DNA of 64,000 nucleotides from an uncultured Acidobacteriaceae bacterium (GCA_963766625.1 CAVYBF010000013.1:89987-153986), one strand, 5' to 3'. Numbered from the stretch's first letter, positions 49,185 to 62,290 are shown. Notes: a model not told the origin generated them from the sequence alone. Numbers and translations: made by a program.

Positions 49185-49958
49185 TCACTCTCGGGATGCA
49201 TACGACCACTGCTCATCCCAATTTCCCAGCAGGAACGCCCCGTTGCCTTCGGCATCGCGTTTGTAGCCGAGCACGGTGAGGCCGTTTTCGAACGCCCGCA
49301 AGAATTGCTCCCGATTGCGCTCCTGAATCTGCTGTGCCTTTCCTCTGGTTTCAGAGGCGGCTTTCCACTGATAAATCTGTGCCGGGACCTCAATCGCTGC
49401 TTTTTGCTCGAAGGCCGGATTCTTGCCGCTCGCCAGCAGCGTCTCAACCCGCTTCGACTTCAGCCACCACTCGGCGATGAGACGGTCGCTGGGAAGCCCG
49501 CCCTGCAGCGGCGACGAGGTGATTCCGTACTGGTTAATGTTGTAGCGCCGCGAGATTGCTCCCAGCTTCTCGATATTCAGGTAAGCATTTTTAATTTCGA
49601 GCGGATCGTACGTCCATTCGATCAACTCGATGCCCCGCGCCAGCGCGTCTTCGCGCTGCAGCAGCTTCAGGCGGCGCCCCAGGCCGGAGTTGCGATGCTC
49701 CTTGCGCACTGCCAGCATGTGTGAGTGCAGATAAAGATGGCCCGATCGTGTCCCCGGAACGGAAAGAGCGAAGCCAACCATGTCTTTCCCCTCGAAGGCC
49801 CCCATCACCTGTCCCCCGACTTTTTCTGCCACGACGAACATGCGCAAAGGCACCAGTTCGTCGTCAGTGAAATTCCAGATTTCTTTCTGCAATGCGACGC
49901 AGGTTCTCAACTCCTCCAGTCCCTGGCACCGTCGGATCACAACCGAGTCCGTGCTCAA
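49185..49958 (-). CDS. GNAT-family N-acyltransferase
   Basis: It is 257 aa with the GNAT core HMLAVRKEHRNSGLGRRLKLLQREDALARG. Its start overlaps the mazG stop (ATGA). Confidence 0.7.
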   Translation of the reverse strand: MSTDSVVIRRCQGLEELRTCVALQKEIWNFTDDELVPLRMFVVAEKVGGQVMGAFEGKDMVGFALSVPGTRSGHLYLHSHMLAVRKEHRNSGLGRRLKLLQREDALARGIELIEWTYDPLEIKNAYLNIEKLGAISRRYNINQYGITSSPLQGGLPSDRLIAEWWLKSKRVETLLASGKNPAFEQKAAIEVPAQIYQWKAASETRGKAQQIQERNREQFLRAFENGLTVLGYKRDAEGNGAFLLGNWDEQWSYASRE

Positions 49959-50875
49959 GAGTTTTCTTCCTCCCGCTTTGCTTGCTGCCAGAGGGATTCG
50001 AGTTCCTCCGTAGAAGAGCTTTGAGGAGTTATGCCGCGTTCATGCAGGCGCTGCTCCATCCATTGAAAGCGCCTTCGGAACTTGCGATTGGTTTTGCGTA
50101 TCGCAGATTCGGGATCGACCGAAAGATAGCGGGCAATATTCACCAGCACAAAAAACAGGTCCCCTACCTCTTCTTCCAGGCGCTGGCGGAGACCTTCAGA
50201 AATAACCTGGCGCCCCGAACCTGCCAAACCGCGCGCCTCCGGATGCGGTCCGGGAGCCGGGAAGTCCTGCAGGTGCTGTCGCAGTTCCGCTACTTCCTCT
50301 TGAAGCTTCTCGAACAGTCCCTCGATGTTCGGCCAGTCGAAACCGACCTGCGCTGCTCGTGAACTCAGCTTATGAGCTTCGAGCAAAGAAGGCATCGCTG
50401 ACGAAATTCCGGCAAGAATCGATTTTGCAGCCGCCCCTTCGTTCTGAGGCCCGGTCTGACTTCTGTCCGCTGTTTCTCGCTCCCGCTTTTTTCGCTCTTC
50501 GACTTTCAGCGCTTCCCAATTTCGTTTGACGTCGCTGGAAGTCTCAGCTTTCACATCCCCGAATACATGCGGATGCCTGTCCACGAGCTTGCGCGAAAGC
50601 CGGTCGAGAACGTCGTCGATCGAAAATGTTCCCTGCTCCTTGGCCATTTCCGAATAGAAAAGCACTTGCAGCAGGAGATCGCCAAGTTCGCCCGGCAGTT
50701 CTTCCCAATCGCGATTATCGATCGCTTCCAGAACTTCGTAGGTCTCCTCGAGGGTATACGGCTTGATGGAATCGAAAGTCTGCTCGCGATCCCAGGGACA
50801 GCCTCCGGGCGCTCGCAGGCGCTCCATGATCTCGACCGCCCGCTCGAAACGTTCTCCAGTTGTGGACATTGGCAA
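49955..50875 (-). CDS. mazG: nucleoside triphosphate pyrophosphohydrolase MazG
   Basis: It has CPWDREQTFDSIKPYTLEETYEVLEAI and EELGDLLLQV, and a second MazG domain with EEVGDLFFVLVN. The start is TTG at 50875 or ATG at 50869. Confidence 0.9.
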   Translation of the reverse strand: MPMSTTGERFERAVEIMERLRAPGGCPWDREQTFDSIKPYTLEETYEVLEAIDNRDWEELPGELGDLLLQVLFYSEMAKEQGTFSIDDVLDRLSRKLVDRHPHVFGDVKAETSSDVKRNWEALKVEERKKRERETADRSQTGPQNEGAAAKSILAGISSAMPSLLEAHKLSSRAAQVGFDWPNIEGLFEKLQEEVAELRQHLQDFPAPGPHPEARGLAGSGRQVISEGLRQRLEEEVGDLFFVLVNIARYLSVDPESAIRKTNRKFRRRFQWMEQRLHERGITPQSSSTEELESLWQQAKREEENS

Positions 50876-50955
50876 AGAAAACCTAACCTGTTGATAACGA
50901 AAGACTAAACTTTAGTGCTATTGCATGTGGGTTGCATGTTGCTTACACTGGCAGC

Positions 50956-52041
50956 ATGAGCAACCGACATCAACGCGGTTACGTCTACAAAGCATCGGGC
51001 GCTTGGCACGTTCGCTACTATGACACAGACGGTAGGCAAAAATCACACCGGCTGTGCAATGGGGTGAAACCAAAGTCAGATGCGAAGCGGGCCGCTGAAG
51101 ACTTCCTTCGTGATCTCAACAGCAAGGCCGCGCTGCACGACGAAAGCACCGTTGCCGGATTTTGGGAAACCACCTACCTGCCTTTCATCAAAGAAAACCT
51201 GAAAGCGTCCACGGTTGAAGCCTATCAACAGTTGTGGCGCAACCATCTGAAGGATCACTTTGCCGATACCAAACTGCGTGAGTACCGCAAGGGTCAAGCA
51301 ACCCAATTCCTCACTACAGTATCAAAGACGCACGCTGCATACACGGTGCAAGGTATTAGGAGTCTCGCCAGCGGTATCTTTTCCCATGCGGCTTCAATTG
51401 ACCTTGTAGATGCAAACCCCATCAAATTTGCAAAGGTGTTGGGCCGCACACTGCCCCGCGCTGAAGGCAAATTCTATTCACTTGAAGAGATCGAAAACGT
51501 TATCACCGCGTTGGTGGATCATGTTGATTGTCAGTTAATCATGGCCCTTGCCTTCTTCCTTGGTCTTCGCAAGGGTGAGATCGCAGGGTTGCAATGGGGT
51601 GATGTTGATAACGACTTCATCCACATTCGCCGCTCTGTGTATCGCGGCATCGAAGGCACCCCAAAAACCAAAAAGTCTATCCGCTCGCTTCCCATTATTC
51701 AACCTGTTCGCGGTTTGCTGGTGTTATGGCGCAAGAAGGCCGGTGATGGGGTTTGGGTCTTCAGCACCAAGGAAGGTGGGCCGCGCAATCTTCAAGCGAC
51801 GGCAAACCGCGTCATCCGACCGGCTCTCACCAAAAACAAACTTGAGTGGAAAGGGTTTCACGCGGGAAGGCGCGGATTGGGAACCACGCTTCGCAAGCTT
51901 ACCGGTAATTCAACAGCGGGCCGCGATGTGCTTGGACACGAAGATGAGCAAATGACGAAGGATCATTACGAAGGCAAATTGCCGGAGATCGCACTTGCAG
52001 GTTTGAAGTTGCTTGAAGAGAAGGTTGTCGAACAGAAGTAA
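50956..52041 (+). CDS. tyrosine recombinase / phage-type integrase
   Basis: The N-terminal SAM-like core binding region is WETTYLPFIKENLKASTVEAYQQLW. The catalytic residues are LRKGEI (R), FHAGRRGLGT (HxxR) and LGHEDEQMTKDHY (H..Y). Confidence 0.9.
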   Translation: MSNRHQRGYVYKASGAWHVRYYDTDGRQKSHRLCNGVKPKSDAKRAAEDFLRDLNSKAALHDESTVAGFWETTYLPFIKENLKASTVEAYQQLWRNHLKDHFADTKLREYRKGQATQFLTTVSKTHAAYTVQGIRSLASGIFSHAASIDLVDANPIKFAKVLGRTLPRAEGKFYSLEEIENVITALVDHVDCQLIMALAFFLGLRKGEIAGLQWGDVDNDFIHIRRSVYRGIEGTPKTKKSIRSLPIIQPVRGLLVLWRKKAGDGVWVFSTKEGGPRNLQATANRVIRPALTKNKLEWKGFHAGRRGLGTTLRKLTGNSTAGRDVLGHEDEQMTKDHYEGKLPEIALAGLKLLEEKVVEQK

Positions 52042-52045
52042 CCGC

Positions 52046-52522
52046 CTAGTGGTGAGCATGGTACGTTGCAACAAGGCCGGTGATCGCACCAACAAGGCCG
52101 GTCGCTAGTGCCAGAAAAGAACCACCAATCTTGATCCACCATTCCAACAATTCACGACGCTCACGTTTTTCTTTGCGAATCGCAGTGACTAATTCCAACC
52201 GCGCCCGTGGTGTGAGAATTCGCCAATGGAATTGAGGTGTAAGCATATCGCTTTCATCAACCCAAACGTCTACATCGTTAGCACCAACCTGAGGAATAGG
52301 AAGATGAAGCTTATCAGCTTGATCTATCACCATTCGCGTGTCGTTGTGTTGCAGTTCTTCGTCAATTGAATTAATTTCCCAACCACGTTCGGCCCACCAA
52401 TCATCGGCGATGGTTGTGCTCTTTTTCTGCCGTGCTTCTTTCATCGCGGTACTTAACTCCCGCATAAGTGCCCATCTGTCCTTTTTGAGTTTTGCATTCC
52501 TGTAGCGCAACCGCAGCGACAT
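52046..52522 (-). CDS. hypothetical protein with C-terminal TM helix
   Basis: It is 158 aa and charged, with a hydrophobic tail IGGSFLALATGLVGAITGLVA. It is convergent with the integrase. Confidence 0.5.
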   Translation of the reverse strand: MSLRLRYRNAKLKKDRWALMRELSTAMKEARQKKSTTIADDWWAERGWEINSIDEELQHNDTRMVIDQADKLHLPIPQVGANDVDVWVDESDMLTPQFHWRILTPRARLELVTAIRKEKRERRELLEWWIKIGGSFLALATGLVGAITGLVATYHAHH

Positions 52523-52959
52523 GAAGAACCTCTTTTTCGTGGTTGGTCAGTCTCATCATTTGTAGAAGTTTGCTAACCAAATTTCAACATCAGCGGGGTT
52601 GTATGCGCGACCGGCCCGGAGATCGCCTCAGCACCGGGCGCTAATGCGCGGCTGTAGCGCGAGAATCGCGGTGATGGGTTAATCCGGGCGACCGCCGACC
52701 GGCTCACCCGGTTGCCAATGTATCTGATTAATTCAGCATTTTGGTGATTGATTCTAAACGACTTATGAAGCCGTTGCATACAGAATCGCATGTTCGCACC
52801 GGCTTGCACGATCTTCCTTCGGCTTCAATATACCTGTTTTCAACTACTTAGCGATGGGTTTATCGTTCTGAATTTGAAGGCCCGTGTGTGTGGGTCGGCG
52901 GTCGTTTCAGACATTTCTGTACAGACAGCAATTAAGCACTTTCATCAATGGGGTATCAC

Positions 52960-53515
52960 ATATGGGTACTGACATATGAATATAACCCCATTATTATTAT
53001 ATATATACTCATATGACAATGGGTGTCAGGTGAACCCATCTGTCAGGTGAACCCCCATTCTCACCTGTCACATGACACACCTGACATGTATAAGGGGGTG
53101 CTGTCGTTTGACGTGTGATCTCGCGCCCCGGCCTTGGTCAACTCACCTTGGTCATTCCAGCTTGACATGGTATGAATGGAAGCTGTAGAAACGAAGCTGA
53201 GGCGGATAGGTCCGCTGGTACTCGAAAATTGGCGTGAATTTGGCGCGAATAAGTGTCAGGGTACACCAAAAGTTGCGACCGCTTGACGTGTTAGATAACA
53301 ACAAAGTTGGGATGCCTTACAGGTGTGTGGTAACAACAAAGTTGGCGCGAAAGTAGTGTGCCGGGGTACTCAAAATGTTAGGCACTTGATGTGTGTTAGT
53401 GTACTGACAATTACCCCTACCCTGTTGGTACACTGAAAATCACGGATGTCAAAAGTGTGTCGGGGTACTGAAAATGTCACTCACTTCGATGTGTGCAGTA
53501 ACAACAAAGTTGAGG
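52960..53515. repeat. origin-like region: AT-rich tract, operator-like TGTCAGGTG repeats and an array of GGTAC-core iterons / TAACAACAAAGTTG repeats
   Basis: The AT-rich tract is at 52988-53018 (CATTATTATTATATATATACTCATATG). TGTCAGGTGAACCC occurs twice (53024, 53041), with an inverted CACCTGACA at 53078. The G(G/T)TAC(A/T)(C/G)N0-1AAAA core occurs at about 53260, 53364, 53427 and 53463, with the variant G(G/T)TACTGACA at about 52964 and 53399. TAACAACAAAGTTG occurs three times (53296, 53331, 53499). Confidence 0.7.
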
Positions 53516-53570
53516 CGGTTCTGATACCAAGCTTTAACTAGCAATCATCCAACAATTCGCACAGTTTGAA

Positions 53571-53602
53571 AGGCTCACACCATTGTGGGCCTTTTGTATT
53601 TT
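53571..53602 (+). terminator. terminator-like hairpin between the iteron array and the repA-like gene
   Basis: The stem AGGCTCACA / TGTGGGCCT has one G-U pair and a 4-nt loop, and is followed by TTTTGTATTTT. Confidence 0.45.
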
Positions 53603-53652
53603 AACAACAAACCCGCACTTCCTACCACGGAAGATGCAGAACAAGAGGAAGC

Positions 53653-55380
53653 ATGACAAACAACGACAGTTATAAAGAGTTAACAACGCAATGGGGTAAG
53701 TTGCAAGGGCCGGGGCTTTATCAGGCCGAAGGAGTCTATGGTTATGACTATGTTGCGAGCCGCATAGAGACACATGTTGATGATCTATCCGACCCGCACA
53801 CCGTGTTGATTATTGGGAACGAGAAGAACACGGTTAAGTTCTTGGACAAAATGACGAAGCGTGGGGTGATTGATGGCCCTGTCTTTTGTGAACCGAAATT
53901 CTTTTGGTTCTCAGATTATGAGGCTGAGGATTACGACCCGGAAGACGAAGACTGTACGTTAGATCACCGCAACCTGAACAACGAACTAGATGCGGAGAAG
54001 TTCAGGAACTTCATAGCAACAAGCGTTGACAAAAGGTATCGCCCCATCAAGTCTGTGTTGGTTCTCACTGAGAATTGGGAATATGACGGCAAGCTGAAAT
54101 ACCTTGACCGCATCTTAGAAGTGCCGGTGTGGAAGGAGAAACACAAAGACAAGACGATTCGCCCTGAAGTATATCAGTTGTTCGTTGATGAACAGGATGA
54201 GTCATCTTTCACAAAAGTAAGCAACGATTCACGTAATGGGGTTGTTAAACGATCAATTGAGTTGGTGCGCGGCGACCAAGTAAAGCCGGAAGAGATTAGA
54301 TTTTTGGTGCCTAACTTCGTGCCATTACATCAGCCGGTTGTGTTTTCGGGTGAGATGGACACACGCAAGAGCACGCTTGCTCTTGATATTGCCGCTGCCG
54401 GGTCGTGTTGGCGACCGTGGTTTATGGGAGAAGAGAACGAATGCACACCATTTCTCACGTTGGTTGCGGCGGCTGAAGACAATTTTGCAACCACGACGTT
54501 GCCGCGATTCATGGCAGCGGGCGGGGTTCGTGATTGCCTGTATGGTGTCAAGCTGGATGTGCAGACCGAACAACAAACCAACGATGGATTGAAGGTTTAC
54601 AGCACACCGCTGTCATTCGATGAGCATTTGAATTTGTTGGGTGAGAAGATCGTGGAACTTAATTCAACGCGAGAATGGCGAGTCGGCATGTTGATTAATG
54701 ACCCCATCATTGCGTTGTTCGGCAACAAGAATTACAACAACCCGCAAGATTCGCGTGACATCATGCGCGGCTTGACGAAGCTTTGTGAAGAACTACACAT
54801 CACCATTGCAAACATTGCCCACTTCAACAAGACGTTGGGGTTGACGGCGAAGCAAAAGACGGCGGGCAGCAAAGCGTTGGTTGAAGCCCACCGGCAAGCG
54901 TGGGCATTCGATCTGATGGAAGACGATAAAAAGATAACACTCATCGCACCCATCAAGCACAACCTGTTGAAAGATGCGCGGTCCTACAAGATCACCACGG
55001 TTGGTAAAGATATTGAATGGGAGATTGGTGAAGGGTATTACCAGAAAGCGAATGTTGGTGTCATCAAGTTTGTTGGTTATTCCAACATGACCGCCGATGA
55101 ACGCATTGAGGAACGGGAAGACAAAGGCCGGGGTAGTCGGAAAGAGATCAAGAAAGCCATTCTTGATTTGTTGAAGAATGGGCCGCTACCAGCGGGTCAG
55201 GTTTGCAACGCGCTTCAAGACTTAGGCTCAATGCGAACCATCCAACGGGCCGCTGGCATGTTGGAAGAAGAAGGCAAGCTATCGCGTGTTGGCAACAACA
55301 ACAAGAATCTGGTTTGGCAGTTAGCGACGGAACCACGGCAAGCAAGCTTTGATGATGCAGAGGCGGTGCGAAATGAATAA
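53653..55380 (+). CDS. RepA/AAA_25-like (RecA-fold) replication ATPase with C-terminal winged-helix domain
   Basis: It is 575 aa. The central region LVPNFVPLHQPVVFSGEMDTRKSTLALDIAAAGS resembles the AAA_25/RepA P-loop but with GxxxxRKS. A Walker-B-like motif (GMLINDPI) and IAHFNK are present. The C-terminus KAILDLLKNGPLPAGQVCNAL..RTIQRAAGMLEEEGKL is wHTH-like. Confidence 0.6.
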   Translation: MTNNDSYKELTTQWGKLQGPGLYQAEGVYGYDYVASRIETHVDDLSDPHTVLIIGNEKNTVKFLDKMTKRGVIDGPVFCEPKFFWFSDYEAEDYDPEDEDCTLDHRNLNNELDAEKFRNFIATSVDKRYRPIKSVLVLTENWEYDGKLKYLDRILEVPVWKEKHKDKTIRPEVYQLFVDEQDESSFTKVSNDSRNGVVKRSIELVRGDQVKPEEIRFLVPNFVPLHQPVVFSGEMDTRKSTLALDIAAAGSCWRPWFMGEENECTPFLTLVAAAEDNFATTTLPRFMAAGGVRDCLYGVKLDVQTEQQTNDGLKVYSTPLSFDEHLNLLGEKIVELNSTREWRVGMLINDPIIALFGNKNYNNPQDSRDIMRGLTKLCEELHITIANIAHFNKTLGLTAKQKTAGSKALVEAHRQAWAFDLMEDDKKITLIAPIKHNLLKDARSYKITTVGKDIEWEIGEGYYQKANVGVIKFVGYSNMTADERIEEREDKGRGSRKEIKKAILDLLKNGPLPAGQVCNALQDLGSMRTIQRAAGMLEEEGKLSRVGNNNKNLVWQLATEPRQASFDDAEAVRNE

Positions 55381-55627
55381 CAACAATCCAAGGCATCCCG
55401 CACAAAGACCTTCAGGGCCGAACGCTTATTTGCAAATTTGCTTGCTCACGAAGGTGCCGTTAACCATTCACTTCACCGATGGTGAGATCGTGAAAGAGTG
55501 CCTATTGGTGCAGATGGACACATTGAACCTGTTGCTAAAGGTAGTGGCGACCGGGCAAGAGTTTGTAGTTACACGGTCAAACATTAAGAAGATTGAAAGC
55601 ACCCACCAAGGAGCACACAACCAATGA
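55373..55627 (+). CDS. small Sm/Hfq-like fold protein (tentative)
   Basis: The ATG at 55373 overlaps the repA-like stop. AYLQICLLTKVPLTIHFTDGEIVKECLLVQMDTLNLLLK..FVVTRSNIKKI parallels the Hfq pattern FLN.LR..RVPVSIYL.NG..L.G.I..FD.F.ILLK...QMVYKHAIST. Confidence 0.4.
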   Translation: MNNNNPRHPAQRPSGPNAYLQICLLTKVPLTIHFTDGEIVKECLLVQMDTLNLLLKVVATGQEFVVTRSNIKKIESTHQGAHNQ

Positions 55628-55872
55628 CTAACTTACTCAGTGATGACACCTTTCTCCGCATCAAGACGGCCCGCCGCATTCGCACGTTGCTATCGCGGGA
55701 AAAGCAACTATACATGAAAGAGTTGCACCAACGCAGCGGAGTTGGTCTTGACACAGCATCCTTTCAGGATGTCGTGAAGGGGTTGGCCGATGGTGGGTTG
55801 GTAACACTCAAAGCGGGTAAGTTGGGTGCGGTGATGGTTGTTTTCAATGAAACCCCATCACAACAAGTTTAG
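55624..55872 (+). CDS. hypothetical protein, possible winged-helix DNA-binding
   Basis: It is 82 aa with a 4-nt overlap with the upstream gene. It reads LYMKELHQRSGVGLDTASFQDVVKGLADGGLVTLK. Confidence 0.45.
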   Translation: MTNLLSDDTFLRIKTARRIRTLLSREKQLYMKELHQRSGVGLDTASFQDVVKGLADGGLVTLKAGKLGAVMVVFNETPSQQV

Positions 55873-55918
55873 AGGCGACCAAACTTAAGCAACACCGCGC
55901 TACAGGAGAGCGCAAAAT

Positions 55919-56530
55919 ATGATTAGTGTAGAAGAGAAATTCAACGCAGTCCTTGAGGCGCTCAAGAGCAAAGGCAACTTTGATTTGTTCACCGAGCGCA
56001 GCAAAACATTAACCGGTATCGAAGCGAAGCTCAACTGTGCTCTTGCGGTCTTGAAAGAGTCGGCGGACATCGTTGAGTCTATCAACGAGTCGGGCCGGTG
56101 GGATTTGACTTTCAAAGTCAATCAACCCATCAAAGAAACCGTTCGCAAAAACAACGGTGCAGAGATGGTCACCATTTTTGAGTCTGGTGAGCGTGATGCC
56201 CTTGAGGGTCAGGGAAGCACCAGCTACTCTTACCAGAGTATTGATGAAGCCGGTGATGCTGATGCTTACCAACTTGAAACGGCCCGGATTATGAAAGGGT
56301 CTTCCGCGTTGGAGTCGAAAAACGGTTTCATCACCGAATCCAACCGCGAAGAAGCCGCCAACATGTTTGCCGGTATTCCTTCAAAATGGAACATGCCTGA
56401 AGGTTTGAGCGAAGGTCAGCGTGAGGAATACAAATTTGCCCGGTCCATTGGTATCTCGGAAAGCGATGCATTGCGACTCGTTAAACTGACAGGCGGTTAT
56501 AACGGGCGCTCTGCTTACGGCGCTCTGTAA
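55919..56530 (+). CDS. hypothetical island protein
   Basis: It is 203 aa and acidic, in the same orientation as its neighbours. I recognised no motif. Confidence 0.5.
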   Translation: MISVEEKFNAVLEALKSKGNFDLFTERSKTLTGIEAKLNCALAVLKESADIVESINESGRWDLTFKVNQPIKETVRKNNGAEMVTIFESGERDALEGQGSTSYSYQSIDEAGDADAYQLETARIMKGSSALESKNGFITESNREEAANMFAGIPSKWNMPEGLSEGQREEYKFARSIGISESDALRLVKLTGGYNGRSAYGAL

Positions 56531-56603
56531 ACAACACGAACTATCAACATGGCGATGGGTCAACACCCATCGCCGCTTTTTATTTACGAAGGAGAAAACA
56601 CGA

Positions 56604-57209
56604 ATGACGACTTATCCCGGCAGTTATGTTGGCATGATGTTCAAAGCAAATCTTGAAAAAGATCCAAACCTTTTAACCTTGGATCATTCACAAATCAACG
56701 CGAAGGCTCAACAGGTTCGCATAAACAACGCACTCAATGATGCGACCCGTGCAGAAGCGACAGATGCTAACACGCTTGAACGCGAGTTGAACAGTTACCG
56801 GCTTGAACTCTTTAATATCGAACAGAGCCTTCGGAGTTCTGAAACCCGCATCAATACGAGTGCCGCAAAGGTGCATCAGCTTCAAGACCGCATTAAAAAG
56901 TTGAAGGCACTCGCGGAACAGTACAGAGCGGCTAACAACGTCTTTGCAGAGCGCGGTTGCAAACATCAAATCGGTTTGGTGGAAGGCGAGTTGTTGTTGG
57001 CTCTAGACGAACTGGCAATGCACCGCCGCGATAACAAAGCTTGCATCAGAGCCTTGCATCTCTTCCATCGCAACAACGATGATGCGATTGAACAATTGCG
57101 ACAGAAGATTGAGGCGAAATATACACCGAAGCCTGTTGCTTCTGATAAGGGCTTTGACCCTCACGCTTGGGATTCAAAGCATTCAAAGCCCGATGGGGTG
57201 AGCAAATGA
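56604..57209 (+). CDS. hypothetical coiled-coil protein
   Basis: It is 201 aa. An RBS (GAAGGAGAA) precedes it, and it has a heptad-rich central region. Confidence 0.5.
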   Translation: MTTYPGSYVGMMFKANLEKDPNLLTLDHSQINAKAQQVRINNALNDATRAEATDANTLERELNSYRLELFNIEQSLRSSETRINTSAAKVHQLQDRIKKLKALAEQYRAANNVFAERGCKHQIGLVEGELLLALDELAMHRRDNKACIRALHLFHRNNDDAIEQLRQKIEAKYTPKPVASDKGFDPHAWDSKHSKPDGVSK

Positions 57210-57370
57210 GTTGCCCTTGTAAAGCGTGCAAAAAGGCGCAACGCGAAGAACGACAGGCCCGCAGTGCGTTGCTAAGAGCAGATGCGAAGCGGGCCTTGGA
57301 TTGGTTGAAAACTGAAAGCGCACTCAAGGCGCAAAAGAAGTCAACCACAACCGGCACCATAAAGGATTAA
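57206..57370 (+). CDS. hypothetical small basic protein (CxCxxC N-terminus)
   Basis: The ATG at 57206 overlaps the previous stop (ATGA). It reads MSCPCKACKKAQREERQARS... Confidence 0.4.
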   Translation: MSCPCKACKKAQREERQARSALLRADAKRALDWLKTESALKAQKKSTTTGTIKD

Positions 57371-57374
57371 CAAC

Positions 57375-57638
57375 ATGCAATCTCTAGAACTCCGACTCAA
57401 TGAGGCTCTTGCTGGCATTGAGGAACGAAACAAACTCATCACCACGCTCAAGCGGCTTCTTCACAAAAAGACACTCGCCTATGCCGAATTACAACGTGAC
57501 TGGCAACTGAAATCTGCCGGTCTTTCACCAGACTCTATCGCCCGGTTGCATCAAGCGTTTGCGACATCAACCAACAATGCCGGTTTGAAAGAGGCAATCA
57601 ATGTTGAACGAAAACGAACTGCTGCAAGCCAAAGATAG
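57375..57638 (+). CDS. hypothetical coiled-coil protein
   Basis: It is 87 aa and tightly packed with its neighbours. Confidence 0.45.
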   Translation: MQSLELRLNEALAGIEERNKLITTLKRLLHKKTLAYAELQRDWQLKSAGLSPDSIARLHQAFATSTNNAGLKEAINVERKRTAASQR

Positions 57639-57834
57639 GCTCATCGAACAGTTAGAAGAAAATGCCAAACTCATGCGGGAACTTATCAACACTCAACGCG
57701 AGCACCTAGCCCGTTTGAGTTACGAGCAACACCGTTTTGAAACGGCCCGCAGTGAGCCGGTGCGCTTCCTTGCGTGGATTTTCTTGCGTGACATTTGGCC
57801 GTTCTCTTTGTTTTGGAATAAAGTTTGCCGCTAA
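57601..57834 (+). CDS. hypothetical protein with C-terminal hydrophobic segment
   Basis: It is 77 aa and overlaps the previous ORF by 38 nt. It ends ..FLAWIFLRDIWPFSLFW. Confidence 0.4.
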   Translation: MLNENELLQAKDRLIEQLEENAKLMRELINTQREHLARLSYEQHRFETARSEPVRFLAWIFLRDIWPFSLFWNKVCR

Positions 57835-57976
57835 CAACTTCAACAGCGTGCGGGGCGCAAATGCGGCAAGATTCCCCGATGGGTCTTGTTTGTACCCACC
57901 ATAAAAAGCAACACCGTTCGGGCCGGTCGGCAACCGGCTCACTTAATTTTTGAGCGACCAAGAAAAAAGGTGATGT

Positions 57977-60091
57977 ATGGCAATATCAGTCGGTGACGCA
58001 ACGTTAACGTTCCTTGGTGACACTACCAAGCTTGACACAACCTTAAATTCCATCGGCCCGAAGGCGAAGGCCGCAATGCAGCCCGCGCAAGACGCGGCAG
58101 ACGATCTAGGCGATTCGTTGAATTCAGCCGGTAAGCAAGGCGAACAGGCCTTCAACCGTGTTGGTAAGTCGGCCCGTGGTGCAACGGAGCAAGTGCGCTT
58201 CCTTGGTGAAGAAACAGGCGTTCGCTTACCCCGTGCGATGGCTGCACTTGTTGCCGATTTGCCGGGTGTAGGTGCCGCGCTCAACGCAGCCTTCACCATC
58301 ACCGCAATTATCTATGCGGTCAGAGAAATTAACGATCTAACCAACAAGCTTGCCGATTGGGTTTATGGCGTCAAAGACGCATCGAAGTTCAATGAGGAAT
58401 GGAATCAGAGCATCGGTGCAGCGAGCAAAGAAGCGAAAGACGCTTCAAGGGCTTTGGCTGATTACGGGAAGTCGGCAGACGATCTCGCACGGGAACATAT
58501 CACAGAGTTGGTTGCTGCCATCAACGATCACACGCGAGCGGCGGAAGAAGCCAAGTTTGAAATGTCTTACCTCACCAAAGGTACTGATGCTTACAATGAG
58601 GCATCGCGCCAATACGTTGAACAAACAAAGCTTGCCACAGCCGCAACTGATGAGCACACGCTTGCCGTGAAGAAGTTGCTTGATGCGGAAGCGGAAGAAG
58701 CCCGCGCCAAGAACCTTGAACAGTTGAAAACTGAACTTGCACTCCGCACAAAGCTTGCCAGTGTGCAAATTTCATATTTGGAGATTATGAATGGGTTGTC
58801 CAAAGACAATGCCGATGAACTCCGTTACCAACTTTCAATCAAGGCACTTCAGGAACAGGCTAGTGCTGAATCGAAGTACGGCAAAGACTCCGTTGCCAAG
58901 GTGAAGGAGATCAACGCACAGATCGAAGAATTGCAGGTTGAGCATACAAAGAAGATGCTCGCTGAACTCAACCAAGAGAAAGAACAAACAACTAAATTGC
59001 TTGATGACATGAGCAAGAGCCTGAAGGTGCAAGGCCCGGTTGATATTGTGCAACCGGCTGTGATGCAGAAGTTGCTTGCTTTCCGCAAAGAGGTATCGGA
59101 GTTGGGTGTCACACTCGACACCGATTTGGCGCAGAAGATTGCGTTGGTAAAGAAAGCGTTGGCGGATTACGCGGAACAAGGCGGGAAGGATGTTTTCGTA
59201 ACCAATCAACTCAAGGAAAAGTTGACAGAGTTGGAACGGCAATACGCTGATTTTCCTAATCAGGAAAAATATCTAAGGAATCAGCTTGAACAGGCGAAAG
59301 CGGCCCATCAAAACACCAAAGCCATTGAACAACAGATCGCGGCTTTGAATCGGCAGGAAAAGGCACTCGGTGTTGAGCCGGGGTTGATTAGCAACATCGT
59401 TACCCAAATACAGCAACTCAAGACCACATCAACCTCAGCGTTTATGACGATGGAAAGTTCCTTCTCATCGGCAATGCAGGGAATGATTCAAGGTCAAGAA
59501 TCCTTTGGTGCTGCAATGGAAAAGAGCACCTTCAAAATGTTGGGTAGCATGGCCCAACAGTGGGCGCTGTATTACCTTGCGTTGGCTGTTGGCAACATGT
59601 TCACAGACCCGGCAGCGGCGGCTGAAGAACTCGCCGCTGGTACGGCTCTTGAAGCGTTGGCCGGTGTGCTCAATGGGATGAGAAGCGGCGGGTCTGGTGG
59701 TAGTGGAGTGAGTGCTGCGAACGGTAACTCACGTGGACAATTTTTTCAGTATGGTTCATCCGTCTCAAACACCGGATCACAGGCAGGAAGCGGGCGCACA
59801 ACGAATGTGCAGGGCTTCGCTACTGGTGCGCTCATCACACGTCCAACACTTGCGACGTTTGCAGAAAGCGGGCCGGAAGTTGCTATTCCGTTGAATGATC
59901 CACGGGCGAAGAAAGCTGTTAATGAAGCTTTTGGTGTTGCCGGTGGTGGTGATATACACAATCACTTTCACATCAAAGGCATGGTGAGTGATGACACCAT
60001 CGCCGGGGTAGTTGCCAAGATCAACAAGAAAGTTAGACGTGGACAACTGACCCTGAAGGCAAGCGACTCACAAAGGATCACCAAGAGGTAG
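57977..60091 (+). CDS. phage tail tape-measure-like protein
   Basis: It is 704 aa with a long coiled-coil core and hydrophobic segments (LPGVGAALNAAFTITAIIYAV; QQWALYYLALAVGNMF). It has a Gly-rich tract and the C-terminal motif TRPTLATFAESGPEVAIPL, which resembles the (GE)AGPEA(V/I)IPL motif of tape-measure proteins. Confidence 0.65.
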   Translation: MAISVGDATLTFLGDTTKLDTTLNSIGPKAKAAMQPAQDAADDLGDSLNSAGKQGEQAFNRVGKSARGATEQVRFLGEETGVRLPRAMAALVADLPGVGAALNAAFTITAIIYAVREINDLTNKLADWVYGVKDASKFNEEWNQSIGAASKEAKDASRALADYGKSADDLAREHITELVAAINDHTRAAEEAKFEMSYLTKGTDAYNEASRQYVEQTKLATAATDEHTLAVKKLLDAEAEEARAKNLEQLKTELALRTKLASVQISYLEIMNGLSKDNADELRYQLSIKALQEQASAESKYGKDSVAKVKEINAQIEELQVEHTKKMLAELNQEKEQTTKLLDDMSKSLKVQGPVDIVQPAVMQKLLAFRKEVSELGVTLDTDLAQKIALVKKALADYAEQGGKDVFVTNQLKEKLTELERQYADFPNQEKYLRNQLEQAKAAHQNTKAIEQQIAALNRQEKALGVEPGLISNIVTQIQQLKTTSTSAFMTMESSFSSAMQGMIQGQESFGAAMEKSTFKMLGSMAQQWALYYLALAVGNMFTDPAAAAEELAAGTALEALAGVLNGMRSGGSGGSGVSAANGNSRGQFFQYGSSVSNTGSQAGSGRTTNVQGFATGALITRPTLATFAESGPEVAIPLNDPRAKKAVNEAFGVAGGGDIHNHFHIKGMVSDDTIAGVVAKINKKVRRGQLTLKASDSQRITKR

Positions 60092-60096
60092 GACAC

Positions 60097-60321
60097 ATGA
60101 CACGTACACGCGGTGAATTTTGGGCAAAGAAGATTTTGTTGGCGTGCGAGTTGAAGAACGACAACACAATTGAGACGGTTGCAAATGCCATTAGCGCCGA
60201 GTGTGTACGCTTCGATGGTGACGGTGAAAGTAATTTTTGCGCTCACTTCTCCGATGGGTCGTGGGTAAAAGGCGTCAAACTCAACCAACATTCTTGGGAA
60301 GTGGGATGGGATGAAAAATGA
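60097..60321 (+). CDS. hypothetical island protein
   Basis: It is 74 aa and starts 5 nt after the tape-measure stop. Confidence 0.4.
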   Translation: MTRTRGEFWAKKILLACELKNDNTIETVANAISAECVRFDGDGESNFCAHFSDGSWVKGVKLNQHSWEVGWDEK

Positions 60322-60503
60322 TGGAAAATCAAATTCAAGTTCAGTATCAGGGCGGTTGGTATCGTGCGCGGTTCGCGGGCCGTTCACAATCTACGTTTGG
60401 TGAAAGCGAATGCGAAGCCAAAGAGCGATTGGAGTATTGGCAAGGTTGTCACGGTGGAACCACCAAGACCCTTTTAAGCAAGAAGTTTTCAGACGAAGGC
60501 TAA
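60318..60503 (+). CDS. hypothetical island protein
   Basis: It is 61 aa with a 4-nt overlap with the upstream ORF. Confidence 0.4.
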   Translation: MMENQIQVQYQGGWYRARFAGRSQSTFGESECEAKERLEYWQGCHGGTTKTLLSKKFSDEG

Positions 60504-60522
60504 ACAACAACGGGGTGCAATC

Positions 60523-60687
60523 ATGGAAAAGATCGAACCTTACGGAAGTGAACCCATCGCAACGTATGATCCGGGCCGCTCGCTCTGCCAACAGATCGCA
60601 GATTTGAAAGAGCGCGTCACAATCTTAACCGATGTGATTTACCAACTCACGCAAAAGCTTGGCGACCAACAACCCCATCGAACCTGA
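60523..60687 (+). CDS. hypothetical small protein (54 aa)
   Basis: This is my own translation, MEKIEPYGSEPIATYDPGRSLCQQIADLKERVTILTDVIYQLTQKLGDQQPHRT. A strong terminator overlaps its stop codon. Confidence 0.35.
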   Translation: MEKIEPYGSEPIATYDPGRSLCQQIADLKERVTILTDVIYQLTQKLGDQQPHRT

Positions 60688-60699
60688 TGGGGTTGTTTT
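60669..60699 (+). terminator. rho-independent terminator ending the rightward island operon
   Basis: A 10-bp perfect stem CAACCCCATC / GATGGGGTTG with a 6-nt loop is followed by TTTTC. Confidence 0.75.
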
Positions 60700-60707
60700 C
60701 ATCTCAC

Positions 60708-60953
60708 TTAATCCAGTATCGAAGTTTCGGGAACAAATCCCCCTGACGGTTGACTCTGATCCACTTTTTTGAGCGAAGTCAGCCTGAACCAGTCTGTCTT
60801 TCTTTCGTTCCTGCTTTTGCTTCGCTCGAACCATGAGCAGATAGCCTCATTGTCGGTTCCACCTTGAACACGTGGGCCAATGTGGTCAATCGTCATCCAC
60901 GGCCCGCCACTCTTTAACTGCACAGTCTCACCAACCTCAAAATCGTTTACCAT
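60708..60953 (-). CDS. DUF2158 / YodC-like small protein
   Basis: FEVGETVQLKSGGPWMTIDHIG...AICSWFE matches the characteristic (V)GD.V.LKSGGP.MTV....C.WF pattern. Confidence 0.7.
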   Translation of the reverse strand: MVNDFEVGETVQLKSGGPWMTIDHIGPRVQGGTDNEAICSWFERSKSRNERKTDWFRLTSLKKVDQSQPSGGFVPETSILD

Positions 60954-61221
60954 TTCACACCCCTTCTCTTCGCAACATAACTAATCAACATTCGGAAGTG
61001 AAGAACCAAAAGGAGCAACGTAGTTACTTCTAAGGTTCCCACCAAACAGCCACCATCAACCCGGCCCTTCCTTACCAAAAAATAACAAACGATAATTTGC
61101 ACGTTGTTAAACTTTAAGTACCGTGAGCCGTAACGCCACTTCGGCCCCATTGCCAGCTTCGCGGCTTCGGGCGAGACTGCGGAAAGTTCGGCAGTCAAAT
61201 TCGATTCACGGAGCAAACAAC

Positions 61222-61368
61222 ATGACGATCACTTGGAAGCAATACCGCAAGGCGTGCGAGCAGTCCAACGTTGAGCCGGTCAGGGCCGACTTCAAGGAAC
61301 AGCAACCGGCTTTCATCTTTCGGCAGATCGCAGCGGAGCAACCAAAGGCGATGGCCGCAAATGCGTGA
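61222..61368 (+). CDS. hypothetical small protein
   Basis: The ATG at 61222 follows GGAG (MTITWKQYRKACEQSNVEPV..). The longer track ORF has an implausible Arg/Ser-rich N-terminus. Confidence 0.3.
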   Translation: MTITWKQYRKACEQSNVEPVRADFKEQQPAFIFRQIAAEQPKAMAANA

Positions 61369-61720
61369 TGGGTGTTGGTTCTGTGGTAGGAACTCAACCC
61401 GGCAGATTGCCAATCCTTCCCATTAGCAACCTTGAGCAAATCAAGCGACAGAAAAGCGAAACAACACCGTTGCACTTTCGTCGCATGTTCACTCTTGAAC
61501 AGTCTGCAAGTAGCTGCAAAATCACGCAAGTTCCCGCATCAGTCTGCAACGCTATTCAACTGAAAACAAAGGCTTTCTGCAAGTGTGGACATTCGGAACC
61601 ACTTTAAATGAGGCGGCTGACTGCGGGCAATCCGGCACTGGCTTCGACGATTGAGGATCAACCGTGACCCACGCCATGGCATCGAACTTGGTAAGTGATC
61701 AATCTGCTGGAGGAAATTAC

Positions 61721-62290
61721 GTGGCAAACACCCTACAAGGCAAGAGAATTGCAATCTTAGCGACCGATGGCTTCGAACAATCCGAACTGATTAAACCGAG
61801 ACAAGCGCTGGACGAAGCGGGCGCGCGCACGCAAGTCGTCTCCCCAAAGGAAGACAAAATCAAAGGCTGGGACATCAAAGACTGGGGCAAAAACGTTCCC
61901 GTCGATGTCCCATTGAAATCGGCGAACCCATCCGAATACGACGCCTTGCTGCTCCCAGGCGGGGTTCAAAATCCAGATCAGCTGCGGATGATTCCTGAGG
62001 CCGTCGAATTCGTGAAGCATTTCGTGGATCAGGGCAAACCGATTGCGGCAATCTGCCACGGTCCATGGATGCTGGTGGAAGCCGATGCCGTCCGTGGCCG
62101 CACCCTGACCTCGTGGCCTTCGCTCAAAACCGATATTCGCAATGCGGGAGGCGTCTGGGTGGATGAACAAGTCATTTTGAGTAACGGAGTGGTTACGAGT
62201 CGGAAGCCGGATGACATTCCCGCGTTCAATCGGGAAATGATCGATTTGTTCTCGAAAGGGCGCAGCAAGGGCGAGCGCAAGGCCGCTTAA
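61721..62290 (+). CDS. DJ-1/PfpI-family protein (YhbO/PfpI-type intracellular protease/deglycase)
   Basis: GTG at 61721 follows GGAGGA. It reads KRIAILATDGFEQSEL and has the nucleophile elbow AAICHGPWML, followed by LTSWPS and VVTSRKPDDIPAF. Confidence 0.85.
   Translation: MANTLQGKRIAILATDGFEQSELIKPRQALDEAGARTQVVSPKEDKIKGWDIKDWGKNVPVDVPLKSANPSEYDALLLPGGVQNPDQLRMIPEAVEFVKHFVDQGKPIAAICHGPWMLVEADAVRGRTLTSWPSLKTDIRNAGGVWVDEQVILSNGVVTSRKPDDIPAFNREMIDLFSKGRSKGERKAA

Follow-up and report, generated by a model that had tools for sequence, protein, structure and literature searches.

A 10,723-bp element lies between mazG and a DJ-1/PfpI gene in a 64-kb stretch of DNA (the window, with positions counted from its first letter) from the genome of an uncultured Acidobacteriaceae bacterium (G000, 96.7% complete). 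It is an intact member of a previously undescribed family of integrative, self-replicating elements. Gene content, conservation across the family and precedent suggest that its most likely way of life is that of a helper-dependent phage satellite, of a new family in Acidobacteria, a reading we consider probable. The features behind this reading are its own integrase, AAA_25 helicase and iterons, an incomplete set of virion genes, and two genes derived from phage morphogenesis: one for a 704-residue tape-measure protein (TMP) homolog and one, o87, for an 87-residue protein that resembles part of a phage scaffold gene. Phage satellites of Proteobacteria and Firmicutes are familiar.

The element and its attachment (att) sites are certainly real. 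An earlier reading of the bare sequence (the first-pass annotation) had proposed an element of about 10.7 kb at this place, bounded by a 10-bp repeat taken as attL and attR. That repeat, TGTGGACATT, has exactly two copies in the window (50861-50870 and 61584-61593), each on the plus strand; two or more matches were seen in 0 of 100 shuffles, a test specific to that one 10-mer. Taken alone the repeat is weak evidence for att sites, because the chance of any common 10-mer between two boundary zones of 200-300 bp is 0.04-0.09 (200^2 to 300^2 / 4^10), close to the 5% or so that had been estimated. With imperfect identity the repeat reaches 24 nt, 19 of them identical (50852-50875 versus 61575-61598).

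The empty sites carry the case. We compared 14.5 kb spanning the region with 40 relatives. Both flanks are present in every same-genus genome (24 genomes, flank search), and the interior of the element was found in none of the 40 relatives, except for weak integrase matches elsewhere. By our reading of the match table, the mazG-side and DJ-1-side matches overlap or lie at most 432 nt apart on one contig in 15 of the 24 same-genus genomes. The flank alignments overlap by 15 nt in G011 and by 11 nt in G022, and each of these two genomes has a single copy of the core (AGTGGGCATT in G022) with DJ-1-side sequence directly after it. Contigs from four public soil or sediment runs were also aligned to the region: an 835-nt contig from run X4 joins 50871 to 61595, skipping 10,723 nt, with 8 differences in 758 aligned nt. 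Depth over the element is lower than over the flanks in runs X4 and X5. At the empty sites mazG is joined to the DJ-1 side exactly at the core and the 10-mer is kept in attB, so that the direct repeats at the two ends of the element correspond to a single copy, a feature of site-specific integrative elements. Because of the empty sites in G011, G022 and the X4 contig, we can state that the element is present in some and missing from other near-identical genomes, and that its junctions fall where the first-pass annotation had put them.

The base directly after the attR core, a C at 61594, is missing from all three empty sites, and the strictly shared core is therefore 10 bp. Either this C is an attB polymorphism, the original attB having been different, or the base was gained at integration. 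A second and more divergent contig, from run X5, joins 50872 to 61639, skipping 10,766 nt, with a shorter side of 30 nt; it is probably the empty site of a more distant relative. The AT-richer composition that had been judged by eye is borne out by a computed profile, with a GC fraction that drops from about 0.55 to 0.47-0.52 inside the element, against 0.53-0.59 in the left flank and a climb to 0.62 in the right flank.

The three empty sites also uphold insertion at the 5' end of mazG rather than in a tRNA gene, and no tRNA gene was found in the window. The mazG start codon (50870-50868) lies within the core, which spans the first three codons of the gene (ATG TCC ACA on the minus strand, 50870-50862). 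At attL the order is mazG coding sequence, core, element DNA; at attR it is element DNA, core, native mazG-DJ-1 intergenic region. The mazG coding frame is intact, but 10.7 kb now separates the gene from its native upstream region, and its start lies 85 nt from the divergent integrase start at 50956. We infer that an element-borne promoter drives mazG; a consensus scan found no sigma-70-like promoter between the two genes (2 sites in 3 kb, against a shuffle mean of 3.0).

Three related elements, L023, L024 and L025, have the same topology at another target. Their flanking repeats are the 5' halves of tRNA-Ser (GCT or TGA) genes, not the usual 3' part. The intact tRNA gene adjoins the integrase with its 5' end toward it, and the native upstream box TGGTAAACTGT, seen in G000, remains with the displaced tRNA-Ser 5' fragment at the far end. 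Upstream of the rebuilt tRNA-Ser genes the sequence is element-derived and includes a TAAAC-like word. Because these relatives share the topology found at mazG, we conclude that this integrase group replaces the 5' end and the upstream region of its targets.

Integration at 5' ends is already known. Displacement of a 5' fragment is the less common configuration, and SXT integrates at prfC. The Islander filters, as outlined in PMC4383910, allow for displaced 5' tRNA fragments, and dusA-associated islands insert at the 5' end of a protein gene in the account given in PMC4482086. Our element resembles these islands and SXT in that its site is the 5' end of a protein gene, whose coding sequence is restored; it differs in its target, mazG, and its cargo, and in that its relatives use the 5' half of tRNA-Ser genes. 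The family cleanly illustrates a kind of 5'-end integration that obliges the element to provide the promoter of its target gene, be it mazG or, in the relatives, tRNA-Ser.

The largest gene of the element encodes a protein that we assign as a TMP homolog by synteny. Searched by itself, this protein has no TMP match in Pfam, PHROG or NCBIfam, no tblastn match in 50,697 phage records and no matching PDB chain, and its profile returned only coiled-coil noise (E >= 0.026) from the PDB. Among 5.8 billion clusters just 14 homologs turned up, and no Pfam domain was present in any of them. When IMG/VR was scanned for the pattern of a 15-sequence alignment, 108 of 366 candidate stretches were confirmed as relatives, and homologs lie on the siphovirus contigs L028, L030, L031 and L033 (19-52 kb). 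Those of L028 and L030 align end to end with the element protein (27-33% identity), those of L031 and L033 in N- and C-terminal segments. The gene order in L030 and L033 runs from a Mu F-like minor head protein through protease/scaffold, decoration protein, Mu-like capsid, connectors and tail terminator to the tail tube, two small open reading frames (ORFs), the 704-residue homolog and large distal tail genes; in L028 and L031 the order was read around the homolog only. The element TMPs, at 625-715 residues, are close in length to the L030 TMP (724 residues). In a quick tree, seven of the eight element TMPs and all 11 homologs lacking genomic context stand apart from the four phage TMPs (SH-aLRT 86), and the L027 TMP falls beside that of L030 (82). 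A protein atlas places the 704-residue protein near viral clusters and the TMP families TMP_2 and Tape_meas_lam_C at 0.96-0.97, which we treat as a lead only.

The other morphogenesis-derived gene is o87. A three-sequence profile weakly matched two protease/scaffold ORFs, that of L030 (E 0.003) and that of L033 (E 0.015). An exhaustive search of 1.84 billion representatives then extended the family to 43 proteins, all of 56-142 residues, and against 13,918 viral ORFs the resulting 41-sequence profile matched these two again, with E-values of 1.1e-10 for L033 and 9.4e-10 for L030 and nothing else better than 1.7. The hhalign probability of o87 against the protease/scaffold protein is 93.7 (P 1.9e-7), against P 0.17 for the reversed control. 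Within the phage gene, which occupies the place of Mu gene I (gpI), the match falls behind the protease part; in Mu, gene I encodes protease and scaffold both. These alignments indicate that o87 was derived from a segment of a phage protease/scaffold gene. A scan of IMG/VR for o87 (alignment A3) confirmed none of its 42 candidate stretches as a relative.

The element belongs to a family, with relatives in other genomes of the genus and in soil metagenomes. Searching with the TMP gave matches in 15 of the 201 genus genomes, counting G000, with strong ones in G112, G078, G130 and G207, and in 2 of 401 genomes in a sample of the phylum (G000 again included); a single-protein scan of the genome collection found no relative. 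The four strong loci have a common order of integrase, AAA_25 protein, members of the o82, o203, o201 and o87 families, and TMP, at 25-56% identity. L023 (G112:C11), L024 (G078:C4) and L025 (G130:C57) have exact flanking repeats of 39-43 bp with host genes outside and measure 11,279, 10,442 and 11,207 bp. The fourth locus, in G207, is degraded; in L026 the decay is plain, the integrase being frameshifted and the TMP broken into pieces. The IMG/VR locus L027 is a further member, and 14 metagenome loci found via o87 repeat the series o203, o201, o77/o87, an ORF of 62-88 residues, TMP, o74 and o54.

Some members carry a large terminase gene. It is present in the variants L023, L027 and L121, between relatives of a 170-residue and a 100-residue protein. 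Profile comparisons connect the two types, linking a 91-residue protein to the 100-residue one (99.6), a 192-residue protein to the 170-residue one (87), and o201 to a 219-residue protein of the variants with a terminase (99.4 by hhalign, against the L023_219 family). The 170-residue family, which precedes the terminase in the variants, is absent from the window, and the records of L028, L030, L031 and L033 contain no match to the terminase of L023. In three loci an unrelated 209-residue protein with a hydrophobic tail occupies the place of the TMP (L117:9014-9643, L124:2237-2866 and L120:522-1049); we found no Pfam family and no phage homolog for it. L126 has no TMP at the expected position.

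The element is equipped to recombine and probably to replicate. The tyrosine integrase at its left edge is as first described, with an ATG at 50956 (the ORF lister begins at a TTG, 50932); by eye, the motifs LRKGE, HAGRR, LGH and DHY fit the R..HxxR..H..Y catalytic set, and the protein is 33-56% identical to the integrases of L023-L027. The plasmid-like origin and RepA that had been proposed also hold up in that an AAA_25 match lies beside iterons. The origin-like region has an AT-rich stretch near 52975-53010, two copies of GTCAGGTGAACCC (53025-53037 and 53042-53054), a 33-nt repeat (53355-53387 and 53454-53486) and three GTAACAACAAAGTTG iterons at 53295, 53330 and 53498, where three or more matches occurred in 0 of 100 shuffles. 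In the adjoining 575-residue protein the N-terminal 200 residues have no family assignment and the C-terminal tail looks winged-helix-like by eye. AAA_25 proteins occupy the equivalent position in L023, L024, L025 and L117.

The rest is mostly novel, as had been noted. Among the 21 candidate ORFs scanned, three have a Pfam family above cut-off (integrase, AAA_25 and DUF2158) and four a PHROG match at E <= 0.001. Matches to capsid, portal, terminase and lysis genes, and to relaxase, coupling protein and type IV secretion system genes, are lacking from the element's ORFs in Pfam, PHROGs and NCBIfam. The earlier count of one tail gene and no capsid, portal or terminase stands, the tail gene being the TMP homolog.

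A tyrosine integrase recombined the TGTGGACATT core, and the element now lies between mazG and the native upstream region of that gene. From there we propose the following life cycle. After excision, the element would replicate from the iteron origin with the AAA_25 helicase. Infection by a siphovirus with a Mu-like head module, of the L030/L033 type, would lead to expression of the late operon; o87, perhaps together with o203 and o201, might then act on assembly of the helper capsid, and the element TMP might replace that of the helper in otherwise stolen tails, the chimeric-tail strategy demonstrated for the Vibrio PLEs (elements that resemble phage-inducible chromosomal islands). The 10.4-11.3-kb DNA would finally be packaged and transduced.

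What could the helper be? We conclude that, if there is one, it is not resident in G000, because no helper prophage was found in that genome, which has no second TMP homolog and no Phage_capsid or Phage_portal match. Except for a Mu F-like fragment in a relaxase element, it likewise has no match to the head genes of L028-L033. The relaxase element is a second mobile element at a contig end (L107, G000:C2:1-11000), with a tyrosine integrase, a ParA-like ATPase and a 953-residue TrwC relaxase-helicase; a 157-residue ORF in it resembles the C-terminus of Mu F-like minor head proteins. We rejected the start of C2 as a prophage, given that it is this TrwC-relaxase element. We also rejected a region on C28 that is not recognisable as a prophage (L110:14693-17971, at about 156.7-160 kb of G000:C28). 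Here the genes for a ParB-methyltransferase, a 161-residue protein of a PHROG family and a large terminase (phrog_38, 1.7e-109) are consecutive; beyond the terminase there is no recognisable portal or capsid gene, and the downstream genes switch strand. L030, an IMG/VR record, is a complete siphovirus genome of 46,917 bp with terminal repeats and a Mu-like head module, and its TMP and protease/scaffold genes are the phage counterparts of the two phage-derived genes of the element. On these homologies we put forward L030 and its kin as candidates for the type of helper, which makes the satellite hypothesis testable in soil viromes.

Several observations weigh against a satellite lifestyle. The lack in G000 of a second TMP, a capsid and a portal is one of them, and the sole Terminase_6C match in that genome, on C28, lies outside any recognisable prophage. 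Among 201 genomes of the genus, G096 alone yielded an L030-type capsid gene; none of the genomes that bear the element did. The circle junction, the attP back-joint, was not seen among the contigs of the four runs. Within the family the TMP is not universal, being at the expected position in 10 loci and absent in 4, and o87 was found in two of the five related loci first located via their TMP. In the window's element we could identify no tail assembly chaperone, small terminase or excisionase. All late proteins other than the TMP and o87 are without a phage homolog: profiles of 25 element families matched no phage ORF at E <= 0.01 among the 13,918, the matches in L027 being to another element and not to a phage. 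Packaging, the excision circle and the helper are things we infer.

Some of these points would suit an anti-phage island, in which a decoy TMP and a scaffold fragment act as dominant-negative inhibitors of the tails and heads that infecting siphoviruses assemble, and which, lacking packaging of its own, spreads vertically or by generalised transduction only. Both phage-derived genes encode single parts of multi-protein assemblies, interference of mobile elements with tail assembly has been described (PMC11364771, and for Rta of PLE11), and neither a helper nor a packaging signal was found. Nevertheless we think such an island unlikely: the narrow size range, the element's own origin and helicase, and the terminase in some members better fit a packaged lifestyle, and no PADLOC defence family matched any of 19 ORFs. 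Interference and satellite transfer are, moreover, not exclusive. Poorer still are the prospects of a decaying prophage of which an integrase, a gene for replication and some late-gene fragments survive. Decay would account for two recognisable morphogenesis homologs amid many orphan ORFs, and for the degraded state of L026. It accounts badly for a compact architecture and size that recur, at low identity and with intact ORFs, in at least four genomes and 14 metagenome loci, for presence that is polymorphic in near-identical strains, and for element TMPs that stand, in seven of eight cases, apart from the four phage TMPs of the quick tree (SH-aLRT 86). Nor is o87 a random fragment; it is a stand-alone family of 43 representative clusters, 56-142 residues long. 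The first-pass annotation had left the choice between a satellite, a decayed phage-plasmid and a new small element. Of these the satellite is best supported. A decayed phage-plasmid is improbable: other genomes show the same architecture, 10.4-11.3 kb long, at 25-56% amino-acid identity, and every copy has att repeats of its own.

Might phage particles play no part at all? An integrative plasmid or mobilisable element that moves by conjugation or another route, with coiled-coil proteins serving partition or transfer, would explain the iteron origin, the RepA-like AAA_25 helicase and the integrase, and the TrwC-relaxase element in the same genome could mobilise others. The missing relaxase, coupling protein and secretion genes (in the three libraries named above) speak against it, as do a largest gene that is a tape-measure homolog by synteny and a match of o87 to a phage scaffold gene; we give this account a slim chance. 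The slimmest of all goes to a complete minimal virus of some unknown kind whose particle is built from orphan helical proteins. It would make sense of about ten conserved late genes that have no known function. No capsid-like fold or family was found, however, the o203 model, helical and disordered, matched no viral structure, and the two recognisable late genes specify parts of tailed-phage particles that are unable to work alone.

A helper-dependent satellite is therefore the reading that we compare with known systems. The closest parallel is with the PLEs of Vibrio cholerae, whose helper is phage ICP1. Like the element, PLEs are integrated, have their own initiator on an iteron origin, lack capsid genes and encode their own TMP. 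Their lytic helper is not resident, as would be the case for any helper here. PLEs use a large serine recombinase. According to bioRxiv 10.1101/2025.01.29.635557, every PLE has genes for a TMP and a chaperone, to which PLE11 adds a baseplate hub; the PLE TMP takes the place of that of ICP1 in chimeric tails, which are shorter, and transduction falls by 96-99.9% when tmp is deleted. The differences are considerable. PLEs measure about 18 kb, have a tail assembly chaperone and a baseplate hub in addition to the TMP and depend on a myovirus, whereas the element is 10.7 kb long, has a tyrosine integrase and an AAA_25 helicase, and seems to look to a siphoviral helper. Of the PLE trio of TMP, chaperone and hub we found the TMP alone, o87 matching a scaffold and not a chaperone, and there is no sequence similarity between the two.

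EPIPs are TMP-bearing satellites of Mycobacteriaceae, and PMC12822802 states that TMPs are otherwise absent from satellites. Those of Mycolicibacterium aichiense resemble the element in being small and carrying a TMP; the same paper gives them genes for a serine integrase, a small terminase, a head-tail adaptor, a stopper, a scaffold and a major capsid protein, a set not found in the element apart from the scaffold-derived fragment. PICIs (phage-inducible chromosomal islands) are not reported there to carry a TMP. With PICIs, including the Staphylococcus aureus pathogenicity islands (SaPIs), the element has in common a layout of integrase, regulators, replication module with origin and then a late operon, which in the element would manipulate helper morphogenesis. 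An AlpA/Stl-type regulator, a primase-replicase, a small terminase and capsid-redirection genes were not identified in the window (Pfam, PHROGs, NCBIfam). As a parallel to o87, the small SaPI protein CpmB, which acts in capsid redirection, reportedly shares a segment with the helper scaffold.

P4-like satellites, whose genes go by names such as psu, delta, sid and alpha, are of similar size (about 11 kb) and similarly combine a tyrosine integrase and their own replication with the absence of a capsid gene; no PHROG or Pfam match in the element would fit a P4-type morphogenesis gene or primase-helicase. The element differs from a complete temperate tailed phage in that capsid, portal, terminase, tail tube and lysis genes are undetected in its 10.7 kb (L030, for comparison, has 46,917 bp), and from integrative and conjugative or mobilisable elements in that no relaxase or type IV secretion system was matched in Pfam, PHROG or NCBIfam. 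We conclude that the family belongs to none of PLEs, P4-like satellites and EPIPs, and probably not to PICIs. It appears to share the TMP strategy of PLEs and EPIPs while differing in integrase type, replication protein, size and remaining gene set. A literature search, limited to result listings, turned up no published satellites of Acidobacteria.

Satellite-encoded TMPs were first demonstrated in 2025, for PLEs. If the satellite reading is true, a second, unrelated lineage would suggest that building hybrid tails is a general strategy of satellites, here with a scaffold-derived protein in addition. A more ambitious version is possible, though doubtful: the family would rebuild both ends of the helper particle, a scaffold copy resizing or capturing Mu-like heads and a private TMP giving hybrid tails, and would always insert at 5' ends, with a replacement promoter controlling mazG or the tRNA. 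Expression of mazG, which encodes a nucleotide-pyrophosphohydrolase, or of a tRNA would then be under the control of the element and change on excision.

Table 1. Features of the element and its immediate flanks (strand as in the window; E-values are given after the family names)
Feature	Position	Strand	Basis and remarks
Host mazG (target gene)	49955..50870	-	Pfam MazG 1.9e-36
attL core TGTGGACATT	50861..50870		Repeat search, empty-site comparison; imperfect identity with attR across 50852-50875
Tyrosine integrase	50956..52041	+	Pfam Phage_integrase 4.4e-10, SAM_3; phrog_1 5.6e-51
o158, 158 residues, hydrophobic C-terminal segment	52046..52522	-	phrog_19471 5.6e-4 (weak)
Origin-like region, about 1.1 kb without a convincing ORF	52523..53652		Repeats, iterons
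575-residue replication protein	53653..55380	+	Central AAA_25 (RepA/DnaB-like) ATPase, Pfam AAA_25 2.3e-13
o92 and o82, small proteins	55349..55872	+	ORF reading; no library match
o203, family-specific protein	55919..56530	+	Helical N-domain, disordered middle, conserved C-terminal helix pair
o201, coiled-coil protein, family core	56604..57209	+	13 members in element loci
o87, 87 residues, putatively scaffold-derived	57375..57638	+	Matches about 70 residues of the head protease/scaffold gene, within its C-terminal half (L030, L033)
o77, small helical protein adjoining o87	57601..57834	+	12 family members in element loci; neighbour conserved
704-residue TMP homolog (by synteny)	57977..60091	+	Homologs at phage tape-measure position
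o74, o61 and o54, small ORFs	60097..60687	+	Downstream of the tape measure in some relatives (L114, L115, L117, L118, L126)
DUF2158 (YodC-like) small protein, cargo	60708..60953	-	Pfam DUF2158 1.6e-10; phrog_3261 2.5e-9
o81b, small ORF	61123..61368	+	Relatives in L114 and L117
Candidate integrase arm sites, two exact CAGTCTGCAA copies at 61500 and 61540	61500..61549	+	Sequence reading
attR core TGTGGACATT	61584..61593		Repeat search, empty-site comparison
Host DJ-1/PfpI gene (right flank)	61664..62290	+	Pfam DJ-1_PfpI 7.6e-52

The remaining genes are largely peculiar to the family (Table 1). The small helical proteins o92, o82, o203, o201, o67, o87 and o77 form a block on one strand, followed by the 704-residue protein. 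By eye only, o92 is Sm-like and o82 a winged-helix protein; o82 has four family members in related elements. The o203 protein has 7 homologs in 5.8 billion clusters and 12 members in element loci. Its AF2 model (mean pLDDT 63.9) has no match in BFVD at E <= 0.001 (Foldseek), and its resemblance to a phage scaffold came down to a 10-column VKKNNG match (P 0.037), which we did not use. A similarity of o201 to a DUF3102 viral cluster was set aside as a structural lead only (TM 0.67 by query), below the bar of the tool, with atlas feature scores of at most 0.78.

Outside that block, o158 has no Pfam or PADLOC match and no homolog in related elements, and from its sequence it would be a membrane-anchored orphan, an accessory gene. 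No Rfam match was found in the element at E <= 0.1. A HTH_17 protein is encoded in one relative, L117.

Short repeats lie close to both ends of the element. We tentatively regard the two CAGTCTGCAA copies near the right end as integrase arm sites; with one mismatch allowed, the window-wide count of this word is not above chance (59 of 100 shuffles), and more CTGCAA words continue from the two copies up to the attR core. Near the left end, TTGCATGT occurs twice, 3 nt apart, at 50923-50941, immediately upstream of the integrase start, where the pair is possibly an operator or an arm site.

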